A stretch of 64,000 nucleotides of DNA, taken from the NCBI GenBank assembly GCA_045837725.1, contig JBEWZL010000003.1:434001-498000 (forward strand), in the 5' to 3' direction. Shown here one piece after another: positions 7,668-60,800 of this stretch. A program made the position numbers and the translations under genes. How positions within the stretch are numbered: position 1 is the stretch's first letter; each line of letters begins with the position of its first letter. This stretch comes from Vermamoeba vermiformis (Eukaryota). The notes beneath the pieces are model-generated. The model was not told the DNA's origin. It did not search any database and saw only the letters and a program-made list of their open reading frames with translations.

Positions 7668-9855
7668 TTACATTTTTGGGCGTACAAAACAAGTCAGCTG
7701 TCCTCCCCACGCAGCAACGCTCAGCAAGTGTGGTGTGATGAGCACATCCGAGTACGGTGCCGTGTGCGCGGAGTGATACGTGACAGCGGGCACGAGTGCG
7801 GGGAGATCATCGGGACACGTGATTACCGCGGCACAGCCCTGATCGGTGCTCTCAGGTACATCGAGATCCACCAAGTGAGCAGGACGAGGCAGATGAATGG
7901 ACGAGCGGCGCAGACTGTTGCGGCGAGCACGTGATTCTTTGGGCAACAGCAACGAGTCCAGGGCAAAGTCCCAGAGCACGAGTCTGCAGTCCTGGCCCAC
8001 GGACACCAGTCTGTAGTAGCCCTCGCCCTTGCCGTGCCATGTGTCGCAACAGATCTTCGAGATCCAGCTGTGGTGAGCCTTGCCACGTGCCACAAAGTTA
8101 CAACGCGTTGCATCGTGCGCGTCAAACGTGCAAATATAGAGTGCGTCGTCTTCACCTCCCAGCACGAGATATTTGTCGTCGGGAGTCCACGTGACACAAG
8201 TCAGACCGCCATAATAGGATTTGTACACCACGACCATGCTGTGCAATGTTAATCCGCTGATCGAGGTTTGACACGTTGACACTTACCGCTCCGCTTCAAA
8301 GTCAAACACGCGCAAAAATCCGTCGAGACTGGCCGTAGCTAAGTAGCGACCATTGCCCGAAAAGGCAAAGTCTTTGATGGGCTTGCTCGACACGTGCCAT
8401 CGCGACACTGGATTGACATTTGCGTTCTGGTGACGCCAAATTGAGAAACGTTGCATATCTGCAATCATTGGCAGCTGCACACTGTCATCTTCAATTCGCT
8501 GCCGATCGATCACAAATAAATTTCCGCCAAGACTGGGAGATCGAATGTCATTGCTGTTGTTCGTCGTGTTCTGCGCGTAGAGCACTGTGTCATCAAATGA
8601 GGCTATAAATAGATCTGCATGCAGAGGGTGCCAGCACAATTTAACAACCGCACCGCGAGACAGCGCTTTCTAAATAAGGAAATGAGTCATTGCATATGCG
8701 TGCCATCGAGTCACTTACGCCCTTGTTGAAGTGTTTCGTGAATGATTTCCTAATCGGGTCATGCAGCAGTATGTCGCCAGATTTGAAGCCTATTAATAGC
8801 TCCAGTTCTATTTTTGGTTTGTTGTCCGCGAGCTCGTGTCGGACTGTGTTCCGATTGAGCACGTGACACGAGGGCGGGTGTCTGAACTGCAGCGTGAATG
8901 TTTGGCGCGTGTCATCGGATATCTCCGCGGTATCGCGTGACAGCACCGACATGACTATTTTTAGCGCGCCCTTGCTGACCGAACTCGCGCTCTGATTGGT
9001 CGGTGGACTGCTCAGGGAATATATCCACGTGACACGTGCATCCTGTTCATGAACGAAGTACAATGCGTCGTGTGAAGTCACGTGGACTGAGTTCTGTGGT
9101 GTTCTATTTATAGCCCTTTCGCTGGACAGCGTGTGATTGCCATTTATAGTATTGAATTTGCTGGTGGTTGTACGCGGTATAGTCAACGAGCTATTTTTGG
9201 GCTCTGGTTCTTTTTCGGGCACTTCCTTTTTTAGTAAATCGACTGCGCGTCGTCCAGTGTCCAAATCGAGCATATGCCACGTGCCTTCAGGGGCCTTAAA
9301 ATAGCGCTTGATTTTGACATCTGATGTGACACTCTTGTTGACAGGTCTATTTTTAGTCTCTACCGCTGACACGCTGCTGTCACTTGACGTGCGTGACGTG
9401 GTGCTGTCAATCGAGTCACGTGACTTGTCTGGCACTGCATCTGATGCGGGGCGATCGACTGCTTTGTGATTGCCTTTTTTGGACGCTGAATCTCCGAGAA
9501 CTTCAAAATCGTCTATTTTTAGCTCCGTGCGCGACTGATCACGTGATTCAGTGGCGCCGTTCGCTGCTTTGTCGGACTGATTCTAGAAGAGCAAATTGTC
9601 AGCAAGTGTTTGCGGGTATTTTGCGTTATTTTTAGACAAATAGAGCGGTGCACTGTCCATATTAGTAATTACTCAATAAATCAAAAATCAATTATTTTTA
9701 AAAATAAATAATTGCGAAAATTTGAAAAAATCCTTTCATGTTCATACCGCAGCGTGGCCATTCATCTCCACGTGCTTCAGAGGCGCGGAATTATTGTCTA
9801 AATTAGTACTGTCATGAGCACTGTCTGCGCTCTGATTGGCTGCAATGTCTGTCAT
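7668..9855 (-). CDS. WDR20: WD40-repeat protein of the WDR20/DMWD (CreC) family
   Basis: Motifs NPVSRWHV, ATASLDGFLRVFDF, KSYYGGLTCVTWTPDDKY, GGEDD, HHSWIS, YRLVSVGQDCRL. ATG at 9855 reconstructed through GT-AG introns. Confidence 0.85.
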
Positions 9856-10065
9856 GGTGCAGGGGTGAATGTAGCGCTACTCGCAGTAAATAGATATTGA
9901 ATAGCAGATAGATGTATATACAAGTGAGTCCTATTCTCGTTGTTCGTCTGGCTGGGCTGAGTGCTGCATCTGTTTGCAAAATTATTTCACTGCCATTCAA
10001 TTTCACGAACACAGCTCAGCAACACCGCGAATCGATATAGAAAGGATTGCAGTATATATATACTC

Positions 10066-11679
10066 ATGGAAACAACTTGCAGTAGCATCGTACAACGTGT
10101 TTTAGACTCGCAACTTGGATCTGCAGAACGTGCGCAGGCCTTGGGTGCCTTTGTGCGTCAATTTGAGAGTACGTGCACTTGCATTATGCGCATTTAACAC
10201 CGCGCGTTATTATGCATATTTAATGAATTTGTAACAGCGACCATGTCATTCAAAGCCATTTTATCGACGGATTTGAAACAAAAACTCGTTCAAAAATTAG
10301 TGGACGAGTTCAACAATAACAACGAGGCTAGTTTCAACCCGCAAGGTACGGCTGAAGTGTTCGGGTAGGTCAGAGCGGTGCTAATTGAGTCTAAAAATAG
10401 AACTCGCGCATCACGTGACTACACTGCGCGTACTGGCACGTGAAAATGATGGCATGGAGCCACTGTACAGCACCACTGTAAGTAGCGCACTGCTGGCACT
10501 GTTCGCGCTAAATTTGGACAGACTTTGCACCGCTTGATGGCCCTGGCTGGTCTCGCGCAATCACCACTGCCTAATTTGGACAAAACAGTGCAATTAGAGG
10601 CCCTGAAGTGCGTCATCAACGTCACGCTCAAGAACGACACGTGCATGAATGCGCTGTTCACTGAACAAGGTCACGTGACTGCACTCCGCTCGGTGCAGGC
10701 TGGACCGAACAGCGGAATAACTGACATGGAAGCCTTTGCGCTGTTCAAGCTGCTGGCAAACTGCACCGTGCCGAACAAAAGCACTGAAACTGACACGCGC
10801 AGTGCCATCGTGAATGAATTGCTGGCACGTGGTCTGTTGACATGTGTCAAAGAGTGGCTCGCAGCAGTGCTGTCACAGCTCAACCAGGGCCACGTGTCAC
10901 TCGTCGTGTCAGAGCTCGTGCGTGTCATGCTGCACGCCACCATTAATTGGGGTGTGCTCGCCCAGGGCTCGTTTGATGCTAAAAATAGCGACGCAGGCCC
11001 TGAGAACCATTTAAAGTCCGGCGGAACAATTATCGAAGACAAATACTTTGCTGAACTCGAAGTGTAAGTAACTGTGCTCTAAAAATAGCCACTGACACGT
11101 GCCAGCATCATCGAGTCACTGCTGCAACTGCTGGCCAGCACGGCAATCACGTGGGAGGTGCGGGAGAATATTGTCAGCGCCTTCTTGAACATCCCTGCGA
11201 GGTATATTCGTATACTTTTGCACCGCGCCATGCACCACACGATTGACAGCATTTGTCACGTGCTCGCGCACCAAGCAGCGAGTGGTGATGCACGTGACAT
11301 GGTGCCAACGATGATTTTGTTGTCCACCATTGCCTCGCAGCACGGTGAGGATCCTGATCCCAAGAACGAACAGCCACGTGATTACCTGTTAAAGAAACTG
11401 TTTCCTAATCGGGATCTAGCAACTGAACTCTCTGAAGGCGGTGACAGCAGCGCCCCAAATATGGAACCCAAAGGACGCGATGCGGACACACTGGGCAACA
11501 AAATCATTGCACAAATGACCTCGTTGGACATGGCTATCAAGTACAGCGCAAATGAGCTGCTCTTTCAGCTCGCAGAAGAGGATCCAGAACGCTTTGTCAA
11601 GCTGACTGGATTTGGCAATGCTGTAGGACTGCTTGCAATGCGTAATTTGTTTGGTATGGGTGCTCACTTGAAACAATAA
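10066..11679 (+). CDS. RIC8: Ric-8/synembryn G-alpha chaperone/GEF
   Basis: EALKCVIN and the C-terminal signature ELLFQLAEEDPERFVKLTGFGNAVGLL. Multi-exon. Head-to-head with the WDR20-like gene, ~210 bp apart. Confidence 0.8.
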
Positions 11680-12044: not shown

Positions 12045-12138
12045 GACAGGGTGTCCGTCCATAGACAGGGTGTCCGTCCGTGGACATGGTGTCCGTCCGT
12101 GGACAGGGCGTCCGGTCCCGGACGGGGCGTCCGCCGTG
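12045..12138. repeat. Tandem array of five 19-bp units, consensus GACAGGGTGTCCGTCCGTG
   Basis: Units start at 12045, 12064, 12083, 12102 and 12121. Each forms a short (G)GAC-N5-GTCC dyad. Confidence 0.9.
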
Positions 12139-13383: not shown

Positions 13384-16225
13384 TTACATCTCACGGCGTT
13401 TGTAAAACAAAATGTAGGCTGCAGGTGATACAACTGCAGAAGTAACATCTTCAGTAATTGGCTGTACACTGTCATCATCATAATGGTACCACTGGCCAAG
13501 CTCTGAATGATACGCCATTGCAGTGTAATGTCCACCGCCCATGCCACCATAGTGGTTCTGCGTGATCATTAGTAGCTATTCACATGAAACCACAGCAGAC
13601 TTACCGCGACAGCAAACAGATCATAGATGGGCGGCACCCTCTGCTCAGTAGCCTCAGCATTCAGCTGCAGCACACTGTGGTCCTGCACATATCCTGACAG
13701 GTCCAGGCCACGCAGCGGGAAGTCAATGGCATCGTCCAGTTTGCTGCGCCACATGCCACTGAATGCAAAGCGCTTCAAGTGCACGACAAGTACTTGTGGT
13801 GCCTGCCACAGCTCCATCTTCTTGCTCGCTGTCAAGCGTGTCAGTCTGTGACCCCCATCGATAGCTGCAAATGACACGTACCTGGTTTGAAATCTTTGCA
13901 GGTTGGACAACGCCACAAATTGTCATTGGAGAGCTGCTCTTCGGTGGTGAACAAGTTGAGACAGTCGTACAGCGAGGCACGTGACTTGCTCTCTTCGCCG
14001 ACCACCACCTCTGCGAAGGGCTAAAAATAGCGTCAGTAAACTAGTTTTCAGTGAACACGTGACGCACCTTGACGGCAAAGACTTTGCTGTTGTACAATCT
14101 CAGATCGAGATCTACGGCCAGATACACCTCGGGGGTGAGTGGTACAGCACGTGACGAGTGCCAGTCACGTGACAGCTCTGTGGTGCGACCAGTGCTCGTA
14201 TCAACCAGGGCCACATCTAAATTTAGCTGCGTGGTGCTGGACAGTGCCAACAACGCGCGCAGTTTGAGCTCGCAGATCGCAACGAGCTCCTTGTAGCTAT
14301 ATTTAGCGCGCGGCAGTACCACGAGCACTGGGAACAATACAGGGCGGTACTCCCATTGCCACTCACTGGAAGCACGTGCCTCGGCTGAAAACAGACTCAG
14401 ACTCTGATATTTGAATGGTTTCAGCACGCGATAGACTATTTGCACCGTCACGTGATTGACAGGTGTCAAAGTGGGATCTGGCTGACTGCTGAGAACGTAA
14501 TTGCTATTTTTGGCAGTATTCGCCAGAGGTGTTAGACCAACAGGCATGCCAGCCATATCCATTGCGGGCATCTGAATGACAGGTGTCAAAGTGGCAGGTG
14601 TCACGTGATATATGTAGATGTCATCCTCAGTGTTGAGCAGACGCGTCACTGGCTCATCATTAGCTAGCACACGTGTGATCAGTTGAGTGCGAGGATTGAC
14701 ACGTGTCACTGTCAGTTGATGAACTGTCACGTGGTCCAGTGTCAAAGTGTCAATCACGCGTTGTTTCAGATCGGCGATTTTCATCGACTGAGCGGCAAGG
14801 CTTTTGAAAGTGACACGTGTCAAACGTACCCCCGCATCCGTGAACACAATGACACGTGTCATCAAGTGAGCAGCACGTGTGCGCGGCAGGGGCAGTGAGA
14901 GGTACATGAAGGGATCAAAGGTCAGCGACACCGTGCTGCACGCGGGGCACGTGACAGTCGAGCAGAACAGGCCCTGGAACAGCTCTACCAGGGCTGAATT
15001 GTTCCGCATCACGTGACGCATCCACGCCTCCCGTGCCCCACGCGCGAGTTGAGTGGCGTGCGGCAACTGTCCCGCGCTGTAGACGAGATCCGCGACGGCG
15101 TGATAGGGCTTGTCGCGCACCCGATTGACGTCCTCGTGCAGCGCGTCCAACAGATAGGCGAGCAGTTCTTGCGCGTCGTGTTGGTTGTAGCCGCGGAACT
15201 GCGTCGCGTGCTCTTGAATCGTCCATTTGATGCCACGCGGCAGCACCGCGCGCACGTGACTGGCATCGTGCCACAACTGCGCCATGAGAGTGCTGCACAA
15301 TCACGTGTCAAAAAGAATTCGCTGCGTGTCATGCACTCACCTGTACTCGTGTGCCAGCTTGCCACCGACCCCCAAGGGATTGCGCGTGTTCACGTCATCG
15401 CGGAATTTCCCAGTTAGGAAATACTCGCGCAATGAGGTCACGTGACTGAGACACTGCAGCGCTGAATTCATGAAACAAGTGTTGCCCATATTAGTCAATC
15501 CCACACAACCTGCGCGAGTGACAGTCATCGTGTCATTGCTCGCACTCTGATCACGTGACAATTGTTCCGCCGTGTCAATCAAGATCTGCTGTCCATCCTC
15601 CAGCTGTGCCTCGTACAGCGTGCAGTCGAGCTGATCGAGCTGTTCCTGCCGCGTGCCACCAAGATAGTTCCAATAATAGACATCGCTAGGTGCTATTTTT
15701 AGCTCGCTATTCACGCGTTGTTGCATGGCGCGAATGGTGTCGGCCTTGCTGAATGCAGCGCGGTGATGCTGCTGCCGATAGATAAATGTGAGCGTGAGGG
15801 GATAGAGCTCCACCACTGCTTGCTGCACTGCGCGGCCAATTGAGATCACGTGACGCTTCACTTCGGGACCTCCACCAAATCTAACGAAGAGTGAGTGTGA
15901 CTCGCAGAGAGGGGTGTAGTTACCGATCGAGTATTAATTTCCAGCCATATTCTGTAATCAGTTCGTAGTCGTGGTGCTCTTGCAAGCGTGGTTTGAGTGT
16001 CTCAGATCCGTCTTCAGATTCAGAAAACAACACTGTGTTGTCTACACGGCCGAGCTCATTGCTTGGATTGGTAGCAATATCGTCGCTATTATTATTGCTG
16101 ATTATGCCACGCAAACGATTCCACCACTGCGCTGAGACGAGATAGCGAAATGAACCAGATTCGAGTGGCACTTGAGCTTGCGTGATTATCTGCTGCAACA
16201 CTGCACTAGTATCAGCCTCTGTCAT
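13384..16225 (-). CDS. Ubiquitin-specific protease, USP4/11/15 type (DUSP-UBL-USP)
   Basis: DUSP motif YLVSAQWW, Cys box [36 protein letters not shown], His box [18 protein letters not shown]. Confidence 0.92.
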
Positions 16226-41362: not shown

Positions 41363-41416
41363 ACATATCACCGCTGTAGTTGTGAGGCCAAGTTATGTAC
41401 AAATACACCTGTTTTA

Positions 41417-44045: not shown

Positions 44046-44467
44046 TATGTACGATTGTGTTATTTACAATTCAATGGTGTGAGTGACATGGTCGTCTACG
44101 CAAACAAAAACAGACACTAATTTTACTTGCTTTTTCAAAGAGTTCGCAACAACTCCGCCTCCTGAAACCAAACATCAAAATAATTAAGTACTGAACACAC
44201 TATGATATAACTATTCGTAAACCCTCGCTGGCGAGTGCAGTGCACTCAAGTGTAACGAAAAATAGCGATCATCGCGAAATGGTGCCACCGCATACTAGCC
44301 TCACGAAGCTAGTGATTTTATTGTTATTAATGCTCCATGCGATCGTCTTTTTCGACAACGCCAGTCCTTATTCTCGGGAAAGTAGTTCCTCGTAATTTCT
44401 CAGTTCCCTCAAGTTTGGACTGCGGCGAAAGGCACTCCATTATGCGATTACATAACAACAGTGCACC

Positions 44468-45208: not shown

Positions 45209-45296
45209 TCCAACTCCCACTGCCTCTAGTGCCGTGTTGTTGGATGCACTAGGCACTACTGTACAGATGTAACATTTTGTTAAATAAATCAAACAA

Positions 45297-46692
45297 CTAC
45301 TCGTCACTGTCACTACTCTTACTATTGCTGTTGCTACTGTTGTCGCTATCGTTGTTGTTGCTGTCACCGCCACTGTTGTTGTGATCGCTGCTGTCACTCT
45401 CATTGCTGGCCTCATCCTCGCTGTCACTGCTGCTCGAGCTCTCGTCCTCGCTGCTCACACTGGAGTGCTTATTCTCAGCGCTGTGCTGACTGTAATTGCT
45501 GTCCTCGTCGTGTGAATCATCGCTGCGTTGTGAACTCGCGTCACTGCCTCGACTAGACTTCTGTTGGACACGGCGCTTTTTGACCACTCGCGGACCACTT
45601 CGTGCACTGTCATCGCTGCGTTCACTGTCACTATGATTACTCGCAGCCTTATTATGGTTATTTACCTCATTGCTGTTCTCGTCCTCGCTGTCGTTGTTCT
45701 CTGCACTCTCCTCCTCACCATTGTTATTATCCTCATCATTGTCTTCATCGTTGTGGCTACTTTCATGGCTATTGTTATCCTCATTATTATGGCCCCCTTC
45801 ATCACTGTTATTATCCTCATTGCTATTATTATCTTCGCCATTATCCTCATCCCTATGGTCCTCTTCATCGCCGCTCTCTCCGACATCACGCATCGCTTTG
45901 TCCATATTTGCAGTGTGCCTGTTGTCACCATCACTCTCCTCGCTACTCTCACGCATGGGCACATCGTCATCAACGTGCTTGTCCTCGTGCGCGGTATGTT
46001 TGCCAGCTTTGTTTCGGTTGTCAGGCGCACCCTGCTCAGCGCTCAACGACTCTTGGATGTGTTTTGACCGCTCTCTCATAGCGGCATATTGAGCTTCGAT
46101 CATCGCAGTGATCGCGTTGTTCTGAAACATGTCGCACAGGGGCTGAAATGCGCGCACCACTGCCCACGGTGTCAGTACAAAGTGGTGGTAATTCGAATGT
46201 AACTTACACTTTTTGTGATAGTATATCACGGACTGTTCGGGTGGACAAATGGAGGTGGTTGCATCGAATATAATAACCTCTTGCGGTTCTTTGTAGCTGG
46301 TGCGCTTCGTTCCATCTTGCGAGTTGGGACTCAGATCGGACTTGGACTTGTTCAATCGACTGCTAATGCGACTAGGACTCGTGGGATTGGTGAATTTCTT
46401 GTGCTTCTTCAGCACCGGGCTCTTTTTAGGCTTGGATGCTCTACGCAAGAGCCAGTTAGTAGCTGCAAATTTAATAGAACTTACTAAAAAATCATGATAT
46501 TAATCGAAAAATTACGTGTGCCTATTATGGTTGATAAATAGAAGGCAAATGTTTCAGATCCGTAATTACGTACTTCGGTGCTGCGGAGGCTATGTTATCG
46601 AGAATAGGCGTAAGACCCAGTTCCTTTAATTTATTTTTGTTTTGTTCTCGTTTGTCTTTAATTCGCTTCTCGTAGTCGCTGGATTCTTCCAT
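45297..46692 (-). CDS. Unknown nuclear-type protein with a long D/E/N/S-rich tail
   Basis: Exon 1 (ATG 46692) MEESSDYEKRIKDKREQNKNKLKELGL is spliced to ORF 45297..46448. Basic patches and acidic low complexity. Confidence 0.7.
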
Positions 46693-46921
46693 CTCTGCTG
46701 CGATCTCAGAGGGAGAACTGCTGTGCTAAGCAAAACAGGAGAGATGATTACGAAAATATAAATAATTGGTTCACGAGAGGAAGATTGTTGGTTCCGTGAC
46801 TCATTAAGACGCAACTACTAGCAATTTGAGTCAATTCCGACTTTTCTTTTTATTTCTCTCCCAACTAAGAAGAACACATCGGCCACTTAATACATATTAG
46901 CAGTCCGCTCGATTGTCTAAT

Positions 46922-49498
46922 ATGTTGAAGCAAATATTAGCGGCTGAGAATTTGAATCAGCCAAATTTGAATGCAGAAACCGAGAATCTGTCGGATATAA
47001 CTGACGACAATGGCCAATTATTCGTTAAAGGTAGAAATATTGTGATGATAATGCACAATGATATTGTAATAACAACTTTAATACATAGTTATGCAATGTT
47101 CGAATTTTTTGATCCCGCACGAGAAAGGTAAGAAATTAGATGTGGTTTATACGAAAGACGGAAGCAGACTTTATACTTACAACCTCTCCTATAATTATAA
47201 TAGAATGTACTGGATTGTATGCCATCATTAGTTTAGAGAAACAAGAGCTCCGAACTTCAACTTTAGAAATTATAACCGGTTCCGATCAGAAAAAAAGTGT
47301 AGAATGGAATCAAGAATGTGCTTTGTAAGTATTGAAGCTCGATTTTATTATTCTTAAGGTCTCCAAATTCCTAATTTATTTTGGGGTTTTATTCCGTTTT
47401 GGTTTGACAACGGATGTCAACAATTTCGATCACGTCTTCTAGAAAAATTAAATCGTTCATCGAAGCTTCGATTAATATTTTTATTCCATTATAGAGACGT
47501 CACTCAGCCAGAAGCTACATTAGCAATCACAGTATTCGCCAAATATCCACGCACTTCGTTGTCGCTTGGAAAGATCACTCTGCCCATTAGTCAACTGCGG
47601 CGCGAAGTGACAGAAGCGAAATATATATTGAGACTACGGCGCGTGGATGACAGCACACTAGAACTAGCGCCAGAACTGCATTTGGGCGTGCGGTTCGTGC
47701 ATATGAACAATGTGAGTGATTGATCCGGCATTATTGTTTCGATTCATAATTACTCCGCACTAATCGTGACTATGATGGCAAATATACTCATATTATTAAA
47801 TGCAGAAAGTAGGCCCCGATGATTTTGAAATTCTCGCAGTGGTGGGCAAGGGCAGTTTTGGCAAAGTGTTTCAAGTGCGCAAGAAAGACACGGGCAACAT
47901 ATTCGCGATGAAAGTGATTCGCAAGGACAATGTGGTCAAGCGCAATGCCGTGGAGCACACCATGGCCGAGAACAAGATTTTGAAGCACATCAATCACCCG
48001 TTCTTAGTCAATCTCAAATACGCCTTTCAGACCAAGCTGCACCTCTACATGGTGATCGATTACCTCAACGGCGGTGAGCTGTTCTATCACCTCACGCGCG
48101 ACGATTACTTCAGCGAAGAGCGCACTCGATTCTACGCCGCTGAAGTCGTGCTGGCCCTCGGCTACTTGCACGACAACAACATTGTGTATCGCGATCTCAA
48201 GCCCGAGAACTTGTTGCTCGACATGCAAGGTCACATTTGTCTCGTCGATTTTGGACTGTGCAAGACTGGACTGGGATTTGACACCAAAACGCACACCTTC
48301 TGCGGCTCACCCGAGTACATTGCCCCTGAAGTGTTGCGCGGTGAGGGCTACAACAAAGAAGTTGATTGGTGGGCCCTCGGCACTCTCATCTACGAAATGC
48401 TTACTGGCCTCGTAAGTGTCTCACTGTTGATTGCTGGCTGTTATTAACCTCACTGTTGTTAGCCACCTTTTTGGTCAGAAGACGAAGATGTGATGCACAA
48501 TAAGATTCAATACGCTCCTCTGCAGTTCCCGCCCAACTTCAGCGAGGCCGTGAAAGATTTGTTGCGCGGTCTGTTGAACAGAAATCCCAAGAAACGACTG
48601 GGCACGGGACTAGACGGCACCGAAGACATTAAGAAACATCCTTGGTTCAACTCGCTCAACTTCAGAAAGTTGTACAATCGTGAAGCAGAGCCGCCATTCA
48701 AGCCTCACATTGTAAGTGCCTCTTTTCGCTCTATTTATAGCAATTACTAATTTCAATTAGACCAACATGCTTGATTTGAACTATTTCGATGAAGAATTCA
48801 CACGCGAGGCGCCACAGCTGTCGTACACCGGCACACCTGGTTTCAAATTCGACCAAGACATCTTCTCTGGCTTCTCGTACAACGGCGAGTCAGAAATGCG
48901 CAACTTTGGTGATCACCCAATGCCACCGAGCTCACTGTCGCGCAATGGTACGTGATCGCAGTGCAATTCGATTGGTTTGACTGACACGTGTCATTCAGGT
49001 GCTCTTGAACGACGTCGTAGATTTTCATCTGCCAATGCCCCGCCACCTGTTGGTTCAGTCAACTCGCGACTAAAAGTAGCCATTAGCAATTCCTATAAGA
49101 CGAACAACGTGGACATGATGGAGAGTGATTACGATGGTAAGTTGATTGTTGCTTGTGATTGTGTTCTCTTTGAACTCACTGTTGTTGCAGAGTCGCTCGA
49201 AGACAAGATGGTGCGCATGAACAGCCTGCAGCAGGACACGATGAACATCACGCCCGTCTCCTCGCTCGGCAACTCCTACACCACCAGCAAGTCTCCGCAA
49301 TTCGTGCAAGGTCGCGTGGCCACGAACAATTTTCAACGTCCAGGCAAGCCTCAATCTCCACAGCGCAAGATGTTGATTGGTGTCAACAAAGAGATGCTAT
49401 CACCGCGCGATGACATGTCTGACATGAGCGAGGACGACTTTGACGATGAAAATCACACGCCCTCGTCGCAGAGCAACTTGATGTTTGCACTGGAGTAA
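46922..49498 (+). CDS. AGC kinase with an N-terminal C2-like domain (Ypk/Gad8/Sch9/SGK-like)
   Basis: GKGSFGKV, FAMK, YRDLKPEN, DFG, THTFCGSPEY, hydrophobic motif FSGFSY. Upstream exons give C2-like GQLFVKV..WNQEC.LDV..LGKITLPI. Confidence 0.88.
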
Positions 49499-49862
49499 GG
49501 AGCCACGCACCTCACTCGACTGTACATATTTGCCTTGTAACATAGTTCTCGCTGATTGCCGCAGACGAGAACAGATCTGTTTCTATATTTAGCTCAGCCT
49601 TTTGTCGGATTTTCGCTGCTGTAAATTAATAACTCATTAGCTCGGCGTTCATTTTGGTGCAAATAAAACAACTTTTAAAACTTAAAATCGCTTCATTATT
49701 ATAATATTGTTCCTTGCGTTCATAAGAATTAAAGCCTAACTTGCCACAGTTTGACAAAACTATTCAATACATTTTATTTTGTTCTGGGTAAAAGGGGTAA
49801 GATAAATTAATAATGGGTTGCTGACTACTAGTCGGTGGGTATTTGATGTATTACGATCAAAT

Positions 49863-50953
49863 TTAGTTGAGTTCATCAGCTTGAGTGTAACCGCTAACGA
49901 GTTTGTCGACGAATGTGTCGTAACGAACTCGGCCGTTGGCATCAACCTCAATATCAGCCATCAAAGAGTCGACCTACAATTAAATACAAGTTAATATTAT
50001 ATTTGACATTTGTAATCAGATCGGACAATATAAAGGCCGGCTTATTTTTTAAAATTTAAAGAAGACGGTTGCATACTCGCAATATCTTATTTTGTGGTAT
50101 ATCAAATCTAAATACTTACTTCTTGGTGAGAAAGAGGCTCTCCGACAGTCAAAAGCATTTGACGGAGTTCAGATTCAGCAATAGTGCCGTCGTTTTCGGC
50201 ATCGAGGATCTTGAAGGCGTCGCGCATAGCTTTATCTTGTTCAACAGGGGTTTTGAATTTCTTGCCGTAAGCAGTCTTGAAAAGACCAAAGTCAATAGCC
50301 TCAACACTTGAGCCTACAAAAAAAGTCGGTCAGATACACCCCTTTTATCGCAAGTGGAGGCTCCATTTAATTATCTAAATATAGTATAGTGTTCCAAGAT
50401 GCTCAGACATCAATTTGAACGTTGGATAATCAATGTTGAATCCGATGTGTTCCGCTGATATTTTTTAAACCTGCAACAATTTTCTTTCGAAAATGACAAT
50501 ACAAGCAGTTACTTACCGAACTCCTTCAAAACTTCTTCAATTTCAGCTTCAGTGGGGTTCTTGCCTGCGTTTGGATAGGGTTATTAAAGTCCAAAAAAAT
50601 CGTCGAAGCAAATGCATTCAAAAAAGTAAATTTTAAACTGTACAAATTTTGTTAACTGCAACAATATAGAACCAAAAAATCAATTCAAACTCGTGCACGG
50701 AATAATAAGCCGAGTTAACTTATTGCAAAATAATACTCACCCAAGGCACGAATGCAGGTGGCCATATCTTTTTTGCTGATAAGACCGTCATTATCGGTAT
50801 CAAAAGCAGTGAAGCAGTCCTTCAAGTCGTTTTGAGTGGCAGTCTAGCGATTATAATTATTAGTATTCGTTTTTTTAAAATTTAAAAAAACCGATCAGCG
50901 GTTGGAAAACCGGAGTAGTAAAACTGAGCATAGCAAGACTAATAACATACCAT
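49863..50953 (-). CDS. Calmodulin-like EF-hand protein / myosin light chain
   Basis: Spliced MTATQNDLKDCFTAFDTDNDGLI...IRALGKNPTEAEI...DAFKILDAENDGTIAESELRQMLLTVGEPLS. ATG-only first exon. Confidence 0.88.
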
Positions 50954-51507
50954 GATTGTATATGTGTTGTGGTTTAGACCTTGGTGTGGTAAAAATAAAA
51001 GATTTCAGCAAGTGTGCACGAATCTCTGTCGCGAAGATTTTTTGGCTGGCAGTTAAGTCACGCTTTTCTTCTACCGAGATTTCGTGTAGTTAAGTCACGT
51101 CGAACTGTGACACCACGCATTTAGTTGGCTTCAGTCTCCCTAGTGTTAGGGTTCAACGCAAATTTGGTCTCAATGAATGTTGTTGCGCACTGGATCCGAC
51201 TTCAAACTGGTTTATACTTTTGACACGTACAACAATCATCAAGTCTTGGGTTACGTTAATGAGGGGAGTGGTGTTTGATTCGAATGTCCCTTCAAAACGA
51301 TCACGTGCTTTTTTTTGCCCGTTTTCACGAAGAGTCGCACTGCAAAAAAAATTGCATATTTCATTAACACCTGAACGTGCTAACACGTAACGTGTCGAAT
51401 ACAATAGCTAGCGATAAGCGCACCGGAGCCTAGTATTTATTAAAAGCGGTTCCGTTACATTTCTGAACTAGTTCAGATTCAAGAAACGTTCTTCAACTAG
51501 AGAGTTC

Positions 51508-54500
51508 ATGGAGGCTAACAATAGCAACACTTCAAACCCGACCACTCCCGTCAACAACAACAGAGGAGGTTCTGCCCGCAAATCTCGTCCCCAGCGCCAA
51601 AGAGCGAACACGGATGAAGATCAGAAAGTGAAGAGCAAAGACTCCACGCCCGTCGGAAGCGAGAAAAAAAATCGAAAGGAGACCGATCGTAGCCCCTTCA
51701 CTGGAGGACGAGGAGGACGTGGTCGTGGTGGCTTAGGGTAATTTTCTTATTTTTTGTAAATTTTTCTGGATGATTGGTACCGTGAGACTCCGCAGTGAGC
51801 TCAGCAGACCGATCTTTGTTTATTCATACGGAAGAATGCATATATCCACCAAATTTAATTATGATAATGTCGCATGAACTGACGAGACCTCGCGCAGTTA
51901 CACCCCGCCACGAGATGCCCCTAAACGCAACTCGCGCCCACAAACACCGGACCAACAGGCGAGCAGCTTTCCTCAACGTAGCTACAACAATATGCCTTTC
52001 AATTACGGCGAAGAGAACAAAAAGCTCAGCCACCCTCCTCGCTTCAGTCCGTTGCCTGGATCATTCTTGGAAGTCAACACACCTCCCAAACGCGAGCGCG
52101 ATGGCAATGATAGCAACACTAACACGCCTTCGTTTCGCAAGAAAGGTTTTGGCGCCAGTCCCAAGCCAGGAGCTAGCCCGTTGAAGTCTTCGGCGGATGT
52201 CCCTTCCGAACAAAAGAAAAAACGCAGAAAGACAAAGGCAGCCAATGGCGAGCAAGCAGCAGGCGAGGCTGTACCGAAGCAAGAGGGCGCTGAAGGAGCG
52301 ACAGGCGAGAAGAAGCGTAAGAGACGTCCCCGCAAGAAAAAGAATGCTGAGGGCGGTGAAGGTCAGCCCAAGACTCCGGCCAAAGAGCAGAATAACAAGT
52401 CTGCTGCCAACACTCCTGCTGGTCAGAAGGGCAAGCGATCCTCGCCAGTGTATGACGAGTACTGGACTGAAGAGCAAGTCGAACAAGCCGTCAAAGAAGG
52501 CAAAGCACATCTGGCTGAACTGCGCGTCAATCCGTACAACCGTTCTGAAGGGTAATATAATGCTTTATTAGTACGCTATATGGTAGTATGCTAACTTGAC
52601 TGCAGATACTCAACTGTGCGCGGCTACAGCAATGACGTGATGATTGAAGGGCGTGCGCAAAACCGAGCATTTGACGGCGATGTGGTGGTCCTCGTTGTGG
52701 CAGCAGAGAATGACTGGGTGCCACTCAAGGTCAAGGAAGAGGATGAGGATGAGGCCAAGACCGAGATCCATCACGCTGAAGAAGAAGACGAGCCCGTGGA
52801 CATTGATCTCGATGCTCTCAAGGTCGGTTCACCCGAAAAGGACATTGAATCGCTGCAAGACCGCATGGCACGCGTTGATCTGAGCGACGAGACTACTAGC
52901 GAAAGCGAGGAAGAGAGCGATGAGAGTGAAGAGGACGAGGAGTCGAGCGAGGACGAAGAGCCCTTGCACGCTGCACCAATCAGCAACACTCCTGCTGCAG
53001 CGGACAAACCTGTTGGCACTGACACTCCCAGCACTGACAAGCCTGCTGAGACCCCCGCAGCTGTCAGCACACCTGTCAAGTCCACTCCTGTCTCAGTCCC
53101 CAGCACACCAGTCACCGCTAAGGGTACTGCTACACTCAAACAGACTCCTTCAAAGGCAGCACCAATCATGCGCCCTGTTGGTCGTGTAGTTGCCATCAAA
53201 GAAGCACGTCACAAGACACGCACATTTGTCGGTTTCTTGCGCCCCAACAGTCCCAAGGGTGGTGTGCGCGAGAGTGACAAGGCCGTGCAGTTCGTGCCCC
53301 TCGACAAGAAGCACCCCAAGTTCTTGATCTTGCGCCGTGACGTGCCTCAAGAGTACTTGCAGAAGTGGGAGGAACTCAAGGACATTTTGTACTCCGTCAA
53401 GTTCTGGAAGTGGTCCATTGACATGCGCATGCCACTCGCTCGTGAAGTGAAGAAGATTGGTCTCGCAGGCTCCATCATTGCTGAGACGCAAGCGCTGATC
53501 ACTGAATACGAAGTCGATGACAGTGACTTCCATCCTCGACTTGTTGAAGGTATTCCCGACAAGTTGGAAATTACGCCTGAAGAACAAGCTCTGCGCCGTG
53601 ACTTCCGCGACATTCGCGTGTTCACGATTGATCCCAAGACAGCACGAGATCTTGATGACGCGCTGTCGTGTGTCAAGCTCGAGAACGGAAATTTCAAAGT
53701 CGGCGTGCACATTGCTGATGTGAGCCACTACGTGAAGCCAGGCTCAGAACTCGATCAAGTGGCACGCGGCAGATCAACCTCGGTCTATCTCGTGCAAGAG
53801 TGCATTCCGATGTTGCCGCGTCAGTTGAGCGAGAACTTGTGCAGTCTCAACCCTCGTCTCGATCGATTTGCCTTCTCGGTCGAGTGGGAACTGACGCCCA
53901 GCGGAGAGATCGTGTCGCAATGGATCGGCAAGTCTATCATTCGCACCTGCTGTCGTCTGGCCTACGAAGACGCGCAGTTAGTGATTGAAAGCGGCACTAT
54001 TGAAGACCCCAAACAACGCAATCTCAAGTCGCTTGAAGCTCTGTACAACTTGAGCATGATGAACCCTGCAGTGGAGCCTCATCTCATTGCGCAGGACATC
54101 CTCAACTTGCACTCCATCGCTGTCAAGTTGCGCGAGAAGAGATTTGCCAGCGGTGCCTTGAAGTTGGACAGTGTGCGCCTCTCATTCACCCTCGATGAGG
54201 ACGGCAATCCCACTGGCTACTACCAATACGTTCAACGCGAGTCCAATCGCTTGGTCGAGGAGTTCATGTTGCTCGCGAACATGTCAGTCGCGGAGTTCAT
54301 TTACAAAGTGTTCCCTAAGGCCGCACTGCTCCGTAGACACCCGCCACCCAACGAGCGCAAGATGAATGATTACGTCAAGTTCTTGAGCTCATTGGGCATT
54401 CATCTGACTGGTACTTCATCTGCTGAACTGCATCGCTATTTGGAGACCTGTCACTTGCGTTACCCCGCCATCCAGAACATCCGTCGCATTCTCGAAGAAC

Positions 54501-55102
54501 TGACCACTCGTCCCATGCAAGTGGCGCAGTACTTCTGTTCCGCGGAGATTGATGACTTGCAAATCAAGGACTACGGACACCACTATGCCCTCAACGTGCC
54601 TTACTACACGCACTTCACCTCGCCCATTCGTCGCTACCCTGATCTCATCGTGCATCGTACATTGCAAGCTGCGCTCTTGGCCACGCAACAGAAGCCAGTC
54701 CCCGAAGGTTTTGTTGTGTCCTCTGACAGCTTGAAAGAATGGGCGGTGTACTGCAACAACAAGAAGATGAATGCAAAGCGCGCACAAGAGAAGAGCTCGC
54801 ACGTCTACTTGTGTGCCTACATGAAAGATCATCCGCTTGAAGAGGATGCAGTGGTCATTGAGCTGTCCAAAAAGGTGTTTGCCGTGTTCAGCATGACCAT
54901 TGGCGAGCGATGCCGCATCTTCACCGAGGACTTGAAGTGTTCACGCGTTGACTGGCAGAGCGACTCTAAGACCCTCAAGTTGGCGTGGCCCAGTCGATCA
55001 TTGACCCTCAACTACTTCCACACTGTGCCTGTCCGATTCACAGCTACGAACACGCACCCAGCTGATATCAAGGCACAACTGCTCTTGGATCCGACCAACT
55101 AA
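51508..55102 (+). CDS. DIS3L2: DIS3-like exonuclease 2 (RNase II/RNB family)
   Basis: NRAFDGDVV, FTIDPKTARDLDDALS, VHIADV, LVEEFMLLAN, HYALN..YTHFTSPIRRYPD. No PIN domain. Confidence 0.92.
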
Positions 55103-55180
55103 TTCACTCACTTGTAAATAGTACTCATCTGTACCATTGCTTGTAAAAATACACCTGCGAACACAAACACTATTGTACAT

Positions 55181-57215
55181 TTATTCTTCGTCACTCAAGT
55201 CATACGGCTCCAAGTCTTCACCGAGCACGTACAACACGCGATTGAGTCGTTTAATGCGCACCAAGTCAAATCCACCGTGAAATATCGACGTGATGGGAAT
55301 GTAGTCTGTCAGCTGTGTCTCGACGTAGGTTCGTTCATCCAGTCCTGAGCCATCGTACCACTGCACTTTGACTTTTTGACGTTTGACTGAATTCGGCTCT
55401 TCAACGACCTTGGCAATCCAATAGTACTCATCGACTTCTTCAGGGGCACGACACGCGACGTGAGTGCCAATCTTGAGCTCAAAGTCGTGCTTGCCTTTAG
55501 TCTTGCGCTTGGGCTTGTCGCTGAAGAACTCGTCTTCCACTTCAATGTCCACTGACTTGCGACGTTTCTTGCGCTCTTCAAGTTCTTTGCGGCGCTTTTC
55601 ATTTTCTTCTTTGATTTTATCAAATGGGACATAGGTCGAACCACCTTGAATGACTATACCACTCCTGGATGATGACAGCGATGACGGCTGGGACTTGTCG
55701 CCCTCTTCATTGATTTCTTTCTCTTCATTTTCTTCTTTCTCTTCCTTGTTATCTTTGCTGCCTTCAATCTCTTTGTGTCCATCAGTGCTGTCTGTCGCTG
55801 GTTTCACAGTTGTTTTCGGCTCTTCTTCTTTGACCACTTGTTTCCTCGCGCTCCTTCTCGTCTTCGCGTTAGTGTTGCTCTTGATCTCCACGACGTCAGT
55901 GTTCGCACTGTCACCTTCACTCTTGCGACGCCACTTAGCTTCACGCGCACTGACCTCGCTCTCGTTGTCTTCTTTTTTGCTCGAGTTCTCATCATTCGAC
56001 TCAGTCTGTCAACACAGCAGTCAATATCTGACACGTGTCACGCACGTCAATTACATACTCGCTTCAAGTTCTCGTTGATCAAGTAGTGTGCCACACTCGG
56101 ATAACGACCGTCGCGCTCGACCATGGTGTACATCACACCTGTGGCTCCGTAGCCCTTGCGATTGCGACAGATGGAACAGTTGCAAATATCACGGCCTGTA
56201 TAAAGGTTCAGTGAATATTTGCAGTGCGTGAAATAGTTGCAAAGACTACGTACATGTTGGGCACACCCAGTTCTTGTTCTCAATCACTTCCAACAAATTT
56301 TCACCGTATCGGATCTGCAAACAACGCCCGCAGAACTGACCTGCAAGTAACAAAGGGTTATTACTATATTTGGTAATATCAACATGGCTTTCTTACCAGC
56401 TCCGCGATGATCTGCACATTTGCTGCAGCGTGTCTTTTTGTCAATTGTTTTCTGACGACATTGATGACACGTCGACCCATTGATCTGAATGTCAATATGA
56501 CACGTGTCAAACAGTGACTTGCATGCACGTGTCATCGTTACGTACCGGATCGAGAATTTTGTCAGCCCACACATCGGGATAGGGTGTCGTGCACGTGCCG
56601 AGTCGTTCCTGGAATGAAATCGTTAGCGGATCTGACCACACCTTGCGTGCCAAGATAATAAAGTATATGATATATATCATACCAAGTACGACGGGTCATA
56701 TTCCTCTTTGACGGAGGCAACGCCGAACATCTCGTAGTCAACACTCGCACGACGCGGTCTCTTCTTGCGCTCTCTCGTGTGCTCGCGCTCGTCTTCATCG
56801 CTCTCGTAGTAGTAATGCATGGCATCAATTTTAGCGAGTTCACTCTCGGCATAGCTCACTGCTGCTTCCTAACAAAAAGCGAGGGATCAGATCGGATCGC
56901 AACTTTGGACGTTATTTCGAAGAATTAAACGGTCTAATAAATTTAATAATATTAATGCGGTATTACCATGCCCTGAATACGGCTCGAGCGACGCACCACT
57001 GTTGGAAGTGGTTTGGATGGACGCTTGCGCTTCTTTTCCTAATGAATGAATCAATTAATTGCAAAATACAGTATTATAATAATTATAATAATTACTTGTT
57101 CTTTTTGTTTGCGAATATCTTTCAGTGTTGCATCCAAACCAAGATCCTGAAACAAAGCTTTGTTTCGCTCAATATTAAGTCGCCGTTGCAACTCATAGTC
57201 TGAAATGGTGCCCAT
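55181..57215 (-). CDS. CDCA7-like zf-4CXXC_R1 protein with a C-terminal Tudor-like domain
   Basis: Spliced GSTCHQCRQKT..CSKC..GQFCGRCLQIRYGE..W.CPTCRDICNCSICRNRKG.GATG..SVAHYL. N-terminal SDYELQRRLNIERNKALFQDLGL. ATG at 57215. Confidence 0.85.
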
Positions 57216-57896
57216 ATTGTACGAGAATACGAATGAAGAACTGATTTGTGTTCCGTGACGCGTGGGATCGTCAACAAAAAAAGATATTTTCTTTTATTCT
57301 TTTATCTTCAGTTATGAATACAAGTAAGGTATAGGCACAATAATTCCAAATGAACAACACTTGTAGTTGCCCCCTTTACCTTGGAAGACATCCGTTCGAA
57401 CATAAGGCCCTCGGTAGAATCATGCGATTAAATTCGTGCGTTTATATTTCTGAACAGCTCATTTATTTTAAAATGTAATTAAAGACGTTACCGCAAATAC
57501 ATTAAGGGTACAAATTTTTTTCGGTGCTTCGGAACTCCGTAACTTGGATCTCGGTTGTACGACGTGATCACGGTGTATCCCCATTATATTCCATTAAACA
57601 GTAACATAAGGGATTAGAAATTAAAATGGCGCAAACCTTTAGTTGCTCTTCGATCGATCAAGAAATTGCAACTTCCCAACGCGAAACAAATCGAAAGACG
57701 ACAGATAGTGCATCTAATGAAAGGACTGTGTGACATATACTTGTAATAGTCGAATCGGTATTAGCATGGAATTGGGCTCGCAAATAGGTTGATCTGTCAT
57801 TTTTTTGACACTTGACACGGGCCTGGTCATTCAAACTGTATTTTTATCGCACGAGCACAACTGATATCAAAAAAGATATTATTGAGCGAGTGCACC

Positions 57897-60800
57897 ATGG
57901 AGAACAATTCCAACAGCCCCTCTACACCGCCAGATCCGACCAGTCTCGAATCTGCAGTTGCTTCTGAAGTTGTCGAAGAAAAAAAGGCAGAACCTAATGA
58001 ACTGGATATGGTTAATGAGCTCAGATTTAATGAGCCAGATAGTCCTAGTAATATTGAATACGACCCCGCTGACCCGACCAAGATCAAGTTGGTCACGTTT
58101 GCTAAATTAATTGAAAAATTAACCTCGCCAACTAAATATGGTATGAATGACTGCCCATATAATGCAATTGTACAATTAAATAAGTTATATGTTATTAATT
58201 AACGCATAATTTTATCAGATACGAATCTGCTCCACGATGTCATGTTGACTTATCACTCTTTTGCTACTTCAAAGCAGCTCTTATTAGCCCTCATGAAGCG
58301 GTAAGATTCTACATGATATTTTTCAGCCTCATTTACTTGTCTTGGTAAATACGACCCTGAAATTTACATTGGCTGTTTGCAACGCGGAACTACAATGAGA
58401 AAACAATTAAGACACTATGCCATGATATTAATATTTAGTATTGTAGACACGAAACAGCCCCTGCGGATGCGGACCAAAAAGTCATTTATTTGAGGTAAGA
58501 AATTGGAATTATTTGCATCCCAAACCAAAATTGGAATTATTTGCGTTATATAGCTTAATATTAATTTGATACACTATTATCATCAAATCACAAAATAATA
58601 TCGTAGGCTCTAGTTTTGTGAGTGCCACACAAAATTTTTGATTTCGATAGCAAAATCTTCTAGTTTTGTTATTCAGCTGGAGAGATTAAGACTAGCAACT
58701 GTTATGATTTTGAGCACAATTTTTGATTGAATACGATCAAATCCAAAGCAATGCTAAAAAGTTTTTGACCGATTGTGCATCCGTTCGTAATTAATTGACC
58801 TCGTTTTTATTATTATTACAGAGTCTTCGTAGTATTAAAGCACTGGATTGACAATCACTGGCACGACTTCAGTCAAGACACTTCGTTGCGTCCTATTTTA
58901 GAGCAATTCTTAGAGCGATGCATCCAAACAGACCCTGCCAAGAACAAAGTCCCTGCTGAACAAGTGCGCACTGCCTTGCAGAACAAGGTAAGTAATAGGC
59001 ATTGGAAACTATCATATGCGACCTTGTAATTAACGAGGCTGTTCAATAATGATTTTGTTGACACGTGTCATTAATCAATTTGCAGCTCGAGAACCGCGAG
59101 AAAGGCAAGATCAACACGATGAAGCCACCCAGACCAAAGTTGCCCAAGAACGTTGAAGACCCGCTCACTGAGCTCGACGAAGAGGAAATCGCACGTCAAT
59201 TGACGCTGTTCGAGTGGAACTTGTGGTCGAGCATTCAGCCCTACGAGTGCTACGGTCTCGCGTGGACTAAGAAGGACAAAGAGAAGAAGGCCCCGAACAT
59301 CTTGTCGATGATTGCGCAGTTCAACTACATCAGCAGTTGGGTCGCTACTACGCTCTGTACCACCGAGGACCCGCGCAAACGATTGGCCCTGCTGAAGAAG
59401 TTCTTGCTCGTGGCCAAGTTCTTGAAGAAGATGGGCAATTTAAACGCAGTGATGGAGATCTTGTCGGGCATCAATCGTGGCCCTGTCTTCCGTCTCGAAC
59501 GCACTTTTGCTGTACGTCTTAGAAACGACTGCTAGACGCCATATTAATTACATTTATCTTCAGGGTCTCGACGCCAAGGGCAAGAAGATTCTCGACTCGA
59601 TCAAGGAGATGTGCAGCAATGAACGTTCGTACAAGAACGTGCGTGATTACCTCTCCAACATCAACCCGCCCTGCATTCCTTATTTGGGCATGTACTTGAC
59701 CGATTTGACCTTTATTGAAGAAGGTAACAAGGACTTTTACGGCAATTTGATCAACTTCCGCAAGCGTCGTCAAACCTCTGAGACCATCCGTAAAGTGCAG
59801 CAGTACCAACAGACCCCGTACAACTTGGAGTTGGTCGAGTTCATTCAAAAGAAGCTCAAGAATCTCAAGGTCTTGAACGAGAACGAGCTCTACGAGTGCA
59901 GTTACTACATTGAGCCCAGACCCGGCAAAGAACGTGCCGCTGTGAAGCCTGAAGGACTTGGTGGACCTCCTCGCCAGAACTCTCAACCTCAAGCTGAAGA
60001 GGTGATCAAGATTGAGCTCGAGCCCTTGCAAGGCTATCCCTTCGGTGTTGCCGACACCGTGCACAACTTGCAAGTGGAGCGTGAGACCAATCAAGTGAAA
60101 GGTGCCACGCTGCCGAAGATGATTGAGCGCTTGACGCACCATCAACACGCGGACACTAAGTCTTTGCCTTCGTTCTTGGCGACTTACCGCACCTTCTCGA
60201 ACCCACACGAGTTGTTCGATCTCTTGGTGGCTCGATTCAAGATGCCTGCACCCAAGGACAAGTCCCCTGACAACATGGAGAAGTACAACACCAAGATGTT
60301 GGTGCCTGTCCGATTGAGAGTTGTCAACGTGCTCAAGACTTGGGTCGACAAGCACTACTACGACTTCGAGAACGACGTTGAGTTGAAGAAGAAGCTCTTG
60401 GCATTCATTGAAGGACCTCTGTCTCAGAACGCTACTTGGTCTGGTTCAATGCGCCAATTGGTCCAAAAGAAGGACGAGACACGCAATCAAAACCCGTACA
60501 CCAACAAGGACTACACTGGTGCTCCTCAGCCTATCTTGCCCTTACCTACTTTGGATCCCATCGCTGCTACATTGTTCGACCTTGACACGGAGGAGTTAGC
60601 TCGTCAATTGACCCTCATGCACCACGAAATCTTCCTCAAGTTGCGTGCCGATGAGCTCTTGTTGCTCGCTCAAAAGTACCGCAAGCCTAAGAACGCAGGC
60701 TCTGCAGCTGAAAGTCTCACTCCTCGCGGCACTTCATTGGACGCCGAGCTCGAAGTGAAGGCCCCTAATGCTGCTGCCCTTCAAGCCTTGTCCATGCACA

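Follow-up and report, generated by a model that had tools for sequence, protein, structure and literature searches.

The inverted repeat TGACA-NN-TGTCA, hereafter the dyad, occurs 18 times in a 64-kb stretch of the genome of the amoeba Vermamoeba vermiformis (GenBank assembly GCA_045837725.1, contig JBEWZL010000003.1, forward-strand positions 434,001 to 498,000; this whole stretch is called the window, and its own numbering is used throughout). We propose, with a probability of roughly 0.5, that a symmetric dimeric protein, most likely a MEIS/TGIF-like TALE homeodomain protein, recognises the dyad in a sequence-specific manner, and that the sites are maintained by purifying selection at the DNA level. 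A dimeric binder is favoured because the two arms stand at a fixed spacing, the half sites are cooperative, the arms are conserved independently of the centre, the copies form homotypic clusters, and these clusters coincide with those of other words of the transcription factor site type. All statistics for the dyad given below refer to this one window.

The perfect palindrome with the centre CG, TGACACGTGTCA, is present 11 times, against a mean of 0.01 in 100 dinucleotide shuffles (0 of 100 reach 11); the excess over chance that had been claimed in a first-pass annotation of this DNA is thus borne out, and all 11 positions it listed are exact. The variants with two strong bases at the centre (S-S, where S is G or C) that it reported at 14457, 14577, 39630, 39720 and 39756 were likewise confirmed, and the degenerate form TGACASSTGTCA has 16 matches where 0.05 are expected. 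When any centre is allowed the count is 18, the two copies beyond the earlier list being TGACATGTGTCA at 10838 and TGACACATGTCA at 39297. An order-3 Markov model predicts 0.06 for the 22 counts observed on both strands, and synonymous-codon shuffling within each open reading frame (ORF; 41 ORFs, 12,551 codons, 500 shuffles) leaves 0.4 ± 0.6 dyads, with a maximum of 3, where 12 are observed (this 12 takes in the intronic copy at 48982, which is sited inside a stop-free frame). Because the excess holds against both models, the enrichment persists once codon usage and lower-order composition are allowed for; a codon-preserving shuffle, on the scale of the whole genome, had been named as a check in the first-pass annotation. 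Sites with no more than two mismatches to TGACACGTGTCA number 37 against 4.9 expected, and the density of the dyad is about one per 3.6–5.8 kb of the window.

The spacing of the arms is strict: inverted TGACA/TGTCA arms are found 18 times with a 2-bp spacer and 0–3 times with every other spacer from 0 to 12, and everted (TGTCA..TGACA) and direct arrangements of the arms are at background level. Both arms are intact in all 18 copies, while the centre is CG in 11, GG/CC in five and TG/CA in two, so that seven of the 18 have CAGGTG/CACCTG or CATGTG/CACATG in place of the CACGTG core. Positions −1 and +1 are complementary in just one of the 11 perfect copies, and the palindrome therefore ends at 12 bp. 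The flanks of the copies share no similarity save for two local duplicate pairs, namely 14457/14577, which have 22 nt in common and lie 120 nt apart, and 39720/39756, which belong to a 36-nt tandem duplication.

The dyad stands within a wider excess of CACGTG, which occurs at 111 sites in the window, about twice the order-3 Markov expectation, and is its most over-represented hexamer; in ORFs it is found 73 times against 29.5 ± 3.8 after synonymous shuffling, while plain ACGT is not enriched there (159 against 153.5). The dyad is nevertheless a unit of its own, and its halves are cooperative: TGA is present at 32 of the 222 half-site flanks of CACGTG, and TGA/TGA pairs occur 11 times where 2.3 would be expected if the two sides were independent (about 5-fold), whereas other flank pairs are as expected (TGA/TGT 3 against 3.2, TGT/TGT 1 against 1.1). 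The half sites are also enriched as monomers (TGACAC 112 against 56, TGACAG 90 against 53); TGACAA is depleted, and TGGCA/TGCCA is not enriched in the window. Two local repeats resemble the dyad. A run of 3.7 units of the heptamer (TGACACG) at 40956–40982, in a GTPase ORF, is a direct repeat of the half site and yields TGACACGTGACA twice, and the spacer at 12045–12138 holds five copies of a 19-nt tandem repeat (GACAGGGTGTCCGTCCGTG) whose unit contains a GACA-GGG-TGTC dyad with a 3-bp spacer.

That the dyad is embedded in exons and introns, as first noticed, is correct: 11 copies are exonic and four intronic, and three more lie in spacers. The exonic copies are confined to three genes. One copy, with the centre TG (10838–10849, encoding LTCVK), is in ORF 10486–11064 on the plus strand, just upstream of the Ric8 (synembryn) Pfam match in ORF 11089–11676. 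Five lie on the minus strand in the gene of a USP4/15-like deubiquitinase, within the UBL insert of its catalytic domain: 14457–14468 (centre GG, LTPVN), 14577–14588 (GG, LTPVI), and the perfect copies 14697–14708 (VTRVN), 14811–14822 (LTRVT) and 14850–14861 (MTRVI). The other five are in the C-terminal part of plus-strand ORF 37916–39985, at 39297–39308 (centre CA, MTHVM), 39555–39566 (perfect, VTRVN), 39630–39641 (CC, VTPVN), 39720–39731 (GG, MTGVT) and 39756–39767 (GG, VTGVT). The product of this last ORF has tandem AT-hooks (KPRRGRPPKRGRGRPPK) and no Pfam match. RNA contigs cover 39.4–39.9 kb, and the exonic segments are present in transcript-derived proteins of relatives (P0159, P0165). 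RNA contigs from two runs show in-frame length differences of 3 nt and 9 nt at 39578 and 39741, between dyads, and none of the strain differences falls in a dyad among the 40 of 323 differences listed, a share too small to carry weight.

All 11 exonic dyads are read in one frame, xTG-ACA-NNT-GTC-Axx, which gives [L/M/V]-T-x-V-x; in the second frame the product would be D-T-C-Q/H, and the third contains a TGA stop. The first-pass annotation was right that copies dictate peptides, as the ten different peptides just listed show (VTRVN is encoded by two copies), and the reading-frame check that it proposed gave a single frame rather than use of all three. CACGTG, in contrast, uses all three frames (32/31/10). 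Among the 12 [LMV]T[RGPHC]V peptides encoded in the window, 11 have the one set of codons that spells out the dyad, whereas codon usage would lead one to expect 0.14. Together with the synonymous shuffle this leads us to conclude that the force acts on the nucleic acid and not on the peptide. Selection for the peptide [LMV]-T-x-V itself, to which conservation of the peptides in relatives would also conform, is accordingly an explanation of the exonic copies to which we give almost no credence: the residues that alternate at the centre, R, G and P, are chemically unlike and one base apart, and the same 12-mer occurs seven times outside coding sequence.

The USP protein was compared with four relatives at 85, 88, 78 and 67% identity and with a 37% homologue. 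The dyads are at aligned, conserved positions of the UBL domain and are not insertions. LTRVT and VTRVN are kept in 4/4 relatives (67–88% identity), and the 67% relative has LTVRVV in place of MTRVI and LTRV in place of LTPV, the latter Pro-to-Arg replacement corresponding to a CC-to-CG change of the dyad centre; the 37% homologue has unrelated residues at the dyad places. ORF 37916–39985 was compared with five relatives of 98–74% identity. Site 39555 reads VTRVN, VTRVN, TTGVN, VTRVN and VTPVN in these, site 39630 reads LTPVN, MTPVT, VTPVN, ATPVN and LTGVN, and site 39720 is MTGVT in 5/5, inside a hypervariable stretch. The arm-encoded T and V are invariant in 5/5 relatives at three of the five dyads, and while these residues stay, the one encoded by the centre alternates among R, G and P (CGT, GGT, CCT). 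Between residues 539 and 625, 12 of the 24 residues covered by a motif (the dyad or the MEF2-like word described below) are invariant against three of the 63 others (Fisher p = 4e-6, for a region chosen post hoc); for residues 445–625 the same comparison gives p = 0.03. Site 39756 is lost or altered in 4/5 relatives and 39297 is also less well kept. The comparison of motif positions across orthologues suggested in the first-pass annotation was carried out here at the protein level. Orthologous DNA was sought in metagenome contigs with the Dis3L2 ORF, and 0/150 pattern matches were confirmed; the DNA of the 89% relatives is apparently outside the metagenome collection, because their long contigs hold 3–4 of the 6 search peptides.

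The four intronic copies are all perfect. In the plus-strand coatomer-beta gene, 23830–23841 lies in a 58-nt intron (23825–23882), where it shares one base, the last, with the 5' splice site GTAAGT, and 24437–24448 lies in a 51-nt intron (24403–24453), 5 nt before the 3' splice site, where it supplies a branch-point-like CTGAC; after in-silico removal of these two introns the frame stays open and the Pfam domain is uninterrupted. The copy at 48982–48993 is in a 51-nt intron of a plus-strand protein-kinase gene (48948–48998), again 5 nt before the 3' splice site, and that at 59059–59070 is in a 98-nt intron of a plus-strand RasGEF gene (58988–59085), 15 nt before the 3' splice site. Both of these introns are confirmed by RNA-contig joints (48946->48998 and 58985->59084, each in RNA runs X8 and X5). 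The two 51-nt introns, although they belong to different genes and have unrelated middles, both start with GTACGT and end with TGACTGACACGTGTCAwTCAG, and their CTGAC occupies the place taken in other introns of the window by CTNAY branch-like words. The earlier statement that intronic copies often occupy the branch point consequently holds for two of the four (24437 and 48982) and loosely for 59059, and fails for 23830, which abuts the 5' splice site. The three spacer copies, also perfect, are 24821–24832, between the coatomer-beta stop codon (24710–24712) and minus-strand ORF 24847–25188; 56029–56040, which is 21 nt beyond the 5' end of minus-strand ORF 55184–56008 and thus in a promoter or 5' untranslated region; and 56498–56509, in an AT-rich spacer where RNA-contig depth is almost nil and two further CACGTG lie within 100 nt.

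The dyad copies are clustered and gene-specific: 56 of the 64 one-kb bins of the window have none, and the variance-to-mean ratio is 3.2. CACGTG is likewise absent from 21 of 41 ORFs, including those for SMC, P450, Dis3L2, RasGEF and the talin-like protein (1.3–3.4 kb each), and peaks at 11.9 per kb in the USP exon. Its density per ORF has no significant correlation with G+C content at third codon positions (GC3; rho 0.21, p = 0.25), and that with G alone at these positions (rho 0.55) is partly circular. The CpG observed/expected ratio is 0.69–1.30 over 32 two-kb bins and mostly about 1; for that reason we see no sign of methylation-driven decay, and at the resolution of these bins CpG depletion does not explain the gene-to-gene contrast in CACGTG. 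Motif density appeared to run inverse to RNA-contig depth over 39–59 kb, a relation that we discarded, as the genes are too few and expression is poorly gauged by contig depth.

Motif-rich blocks lie at 7.8–11.4, 14.0–15.9, 19.7–20.9, 23.0–24.8, 26.7–28.0 and 38.0–42.4 kb, and two further words are concentrated in them. The 10-mer CTATTTTTAG / CTAAAAATAG occurs at 11 sites (8955, 9347, 9513, 10391, 10979, 11079, 14021, 15693, 27417, 39681 and 39994) where an order-3 model expects 0.1, and nine of these are followed by C to give CTATTTTTAGC. It is AT-rich and unrelated in sequence to the dyad, is found only in the E-box/dyad blocks, and fits what we take to be the MEF2/MADS-box consensus; its copy at 39681 encodes S-K-N-S, which is kept in 4/5 relatives inside the hypervariable stretch. 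Its counts per bin correlate with those of the E-box (rho 0.55–0.68, p <= 0.004) and of the dyad (rho 0.32–0.71). The second word is another flavour of E-box, TCACGTGA (22 sites, for example 14449, 39417 and 39659) and GTCACGTGAC (six sites), with T at −1 and R-R before it; the TCACGTGA flavour is found 13 times in ORFs against 2.8 after synonymous shuffling, and it presumably resembles MiT/TFE-USF-Cbf1 sites. TCACGTGA often encodes H-V-T, and CACGTG spells 32 of 41 H-V dipeptides. The three largest accumulations are at 7816–11380 (WD40 gene, Ric8-like gene and their shared spacer; 24 CACGTG and six CTATTTTTAG-type sites), 13978–15852 (USP gene; 20 CACGTG, five dyads and two CTATTTTTAG-type sites) and 38016–42393 (genes of the AT-hook protein, the GTPase and GCFC; 17 CACGTG, five dyads, two CTATTTTTAG-type sites and the (TGACACG)n run).

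What might maintain such sites? The first-pass annotation had offered three mechanisms, of which a binding protein is the best fit. In this explanation the recognition site TGACA-SS-TGTCA, mostly TGACACGTGTCA, would be bound by a symmetric dimer and kept through purifying selection on the DNA itself; sites would stand singly or in homotypic clusters within and near some of the genes, in company with TCACGTGA and the MEF2-type CTATTTTTAG, and in a compact genome these clusters would spill into exons and short introns. An exonic site would fit the one frame that gives tolerable residues, [L/M/V]-T-x-V-x, and an intronic site could double as a CTGAC branch-point-like sequence. We infer the binding, the identity of the binder and any effect on transcription or chromatin from the features described above. 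A TALE-like binder is favoured because the geometry of the dyad equals that of TALE dimer sites and because a Meis-class protein exists in Acanthamoeba. To our knowledge, though, animal TALE sites offer no counterpart to the abundance of the exact 12-mer, its embedding in exons or its placement at intron ends. In the TALE dimer sites of TGIF1 and MEIS3 the two TGACA arms are likewise inverted and stand exactly 2 bp apart around an S-S centre: the crystal structure of TGIF1 has two monomers bound to opposite faces of TGACAGCTGTCA (PMC6158717), and the MEIS3 motif from high-throughput systematic evolution of ligands by exponential enrichment (HT-SELEX) is listed as TGACAGGTGTCA (PMC5449588), which is identical to the window variant at 14457, 14577, 39720 and 39756. 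The annotation's statement that TGACA is a TALE-homeodomain half site agrees with both. The Acanthamoeba Meis-class TALE protein is described as having an animal-like homeodomain (PMC3957477), and the TALE monomer site TGACAS is also enriched in the window. The window differs from the TALE sites in preferring the CG centre (half site TGACAC).

Several observations weigh against this explanation. A TALE homeodomain should read the A at position 3/10, and this is the position that varies most among the 26 sites with one or two mismatches (TGCCACGTGCCA, TGGCACGTGGCA, TGACACGTGACA); these neighbours may form a separate E-box class, and an E-box factor that prefers TG..CA flanks would account for them better. 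The centre is not free, since GC, the centre of the TGIF1 site, is found in 0/18 copies. Some copies are where promoters are not expected, namely in the structured USP UBL insert and downstream of the coatomer-beta stop codon, by a minus-strand ORF of uncertain orientation, and one 12-mer per ~3.6 kb is a high density for a transcription factor site. No TALE, basic helix-loop-helix (bHLH) or basic leucine zipper (bZIP) gene lies within the 64-kb window. The orthologue evidence consists of protein sequences only, and identity of T and V over all five dyads of ORF 37916–39985 is not significant by permutation (p = 0.14). Finally, since two pairs are local duplicates, the exonic copies represent closer to 9 independent events than 11.

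An E-box factor of the bHLH or bZIP class is the main rival to a TALE-like dimer, because the commonest centre makes CACGTG and the mismatch neighbours, which retain CACGTG, vary at position 3/10; for the first of these reasons such a factor may also share the site or compete for it. The dyad would then be an extended E-box or G-box, in which CACGTG is primary and TGA/TCA a flank preference, read by a Hairy/HES-like bHLH protein (TGGCACGTGCCA type) or a G-box/ABRE (abscisic acid response element) bZIP dimer. The abundance of CACGTG in the window and in its ORFs and its presence in 11 of the 18 dyads, as in class B E-boxes and plant G-boxes or ABREs, speak for this, and GACACGTGTC is, we presume, the palindromic form of the ABRE/G-box. 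HES5 is listed with CGGCACGTGCCA (PMC5449588). However, the core is not invariant, as the seven copies that lack it keep both arms; relatives differ at the centre and keep the arms, TGA/TGA pairs exceed independent flanks 5-fold, and TGACAS is enriched as a monomer. We therefore regard an E-box factor as possible and rather unlikely. The idea of a uniform, genome-wide iterated palindrome comparable to cyanobacterial HIP1 (GCGATCGC), which the first-pass annotation put forward together with an analogy to uptake sequences, has less to recommend it within the window. Such a word would be under a DNA-level drive (mismatch repair, methyltransferase-linked repair or biased conversion) and would be purged where protein or codon constraint is strong. 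Extreme enrichment in coding and non-coding DNA that overrides codon choice would be expected of it, and the CACGTG-poor region at 43–59 kb still has the motif in introns and spacers and none in exons. HIP1 is, similarly, a short perfect palindrome that is over-represented, lies inside genes and is conserved between relatives, according to two reports (PMC5861425, PMC13756078). The amoeba motif differs in being eukaryotic, 12 bp rather than 8, present once per 3.6–5.8 kb rather than about once per gene, and clustered and gene-specific where HIP1 is dispersed or quasi-periodic; no cognate methyltransferase is known for it. We disfavour a uniform system because of this clustering, with eight of 64 bins occupied and exonic copies in three genes, and because of the co-clustering with TCACGTGA and CTATTTTTAG, the latter an unrelated AT-rich word. 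Genes without any CACGTG include such ordinary ones as SMC, P450, Dis3L2 and RasGEF, with no significant link to GC3; comparison with relatives shows the copies to be old and stable, not in turnover, and the CpG ratio is not anomalous. A drive of this kind is improbable, and a DNA uptake sequence was judged not applicable to an amoeba nuclear genome. A bolder variant, in which a eukaryotic counterpart of HIP1 would comprise thousands of exact 12-bp copies kept by DNA-level selection to serve an architectural or chromatin-marking protein and not the regulation of individual genes, with one exonic frame dictating [L/M/V]-T-[R/G/P]-V peptides in unrelated proteins and reuse as a branch-site module of short introns, strikes us as unlikely.

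A function at the level of RNA or single-stranded DNA, in which paired copies form stems of 12–15 bp that could hold the two ends of a short intron together or give the mRNA a fold, and intronic copies could also supply the branch site, would account for the three introns (two in the window, one in a metagenome locus, L080) that end in ...CTGACACGTGTCAwTCAG and for the complementary CC and GG centres within one exon (39630 with 39720/39756). Stems between copies reached z = −2.0 to −3.7 in four of five folds, including that of L080, and the fifth was at background (z = 0.09), but any two palindromic copies would pair trivially in this way. Some transcripts have a single copy (10838, 48982, 59059), other copies lie in barely transcribed spacer (56029, 56498), the two USP GG copies cannot pair with each other, and an RNA signal has no need of a perfect DNA palindrome; we consider this function physically possible yet distinctly improbable. 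Descent from one repeat or mobile-element family (ends or excision footprints of miniature inverted-repeat transposable elements) or by local tandem duplication, which the annotation had named as the outcome that would speak against its reading, is very improbable. The two duplicate pairs and the (TGACACG)n run at 40956–40982 would suit it, whereas the remaining copies share nothing past their 12 bases, target-site duplications are absent, complementarity stops at the palindrome ends in all but one perfect copy, and the USP copies are at conserved UBL positions.

The genes of the window are otherwise unexceptional in kind. Its ORFs encode eIF2A, an aminotransferase, SMC, a WD40 protein, Ric8, the USP4/15-like deubiquitinase (DUSP-UBL-UCH), P450, TruD pseudouridine synthase, coatomer beta, NELF-B, an SPX-EXS protein, a talin-like protein, two RasGEFs, the AT-hook protein, a GTPase, GCFC, a kinase and Dis3L2. 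The Dis3L2 product has 99% identity to a protein that shares a 90% cluster with a EukProt transcript assigned to Vermamoeba vermiformis. An oligo-dT RNA run of 2026 (X22), which has the same species label as run X8, gave 0 reads on 39201–59200 among 11 million records read.

Beyond the window, at least 120 metagenome loci, with GC contents of 0.19–0.77, have two copies of the 12-mer no more than 30 nt apart. Many of those inspected, among the matches listed, are tandem arrays with periods of 23–36, and comparison of these listed loci with the window gave no blastn match and one weak tblastx match (L037). The tandem-array loci say nothing about the amoeba. Four AT-rich contigs (L020, L027, L014 and L001; GC 0.21–0.40) carry TG[AC]CACGTG[TG]CA arrays with 23-nt spacing, in L027 as two inverted arrays, and resemble the iterons or partition sites of a replicon that is unrelated to the amoeba. 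L080 stands apart: it is a eukaryotic DENN gene (GC 0.49) that has four dyads and 11 CACGTG in 2.8 kb and that was picked by the motif itself. Its putative minus-strand intron (~733–792, GT...AG, predicted from sequence) has a dyad following the 5' splice site and a second at the branch position, and the locus thus repeats the arrangement of the window at another genomic site. In the literature we found no description of the dyad motif in amoebae, and a search for 'CACGTG' with amoeba gave nothing relevant. The exact 12-mer was found only in Ebola-virus papers, and the 10-mer GACACGTGTC in papers on other subjects, among them plant drought and promoter-motif studies. The main text of the Vermamoeba genome paper has no 'palindrom', 'motif' or 'methyl' (PMC7125106).

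Exonic transcription factor sites ('duons') are similar to the exonic dyads in that a DNA word overlaps codons and constrains the choice of codon and amino acid, as outlined in two accounts of such sites (10.1101/2021.09.06.459186; 10.1101/085795). The dyad differs from them in that a full, exact 12-bp palindrome is repeated in one exon frame, dictates tetrapeptides in unrelated proteins and forms a conserved island in a hypervariable region. If the dimer-site explanation is true, nature here offers an exceptionally clear example of a DNA-recognition word that overrides codon and amino-acid choice, and if the bolder counterpart of HIP1 were true instead, a HIP1-like phenomenon would exist in a eukaryote. 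Most work on Vermamoeba concerns its role as a host for giant viruses and intracellular bacteria. On the dimer-site explanation the dyad would also provide a first handle on the cis-regulatory grammar of a tubulinean amoeba, of which our literature searches found no description, and would point to high-density use in Amoebozoa of TALE-type dimer sites, which animals and plants are known to have.

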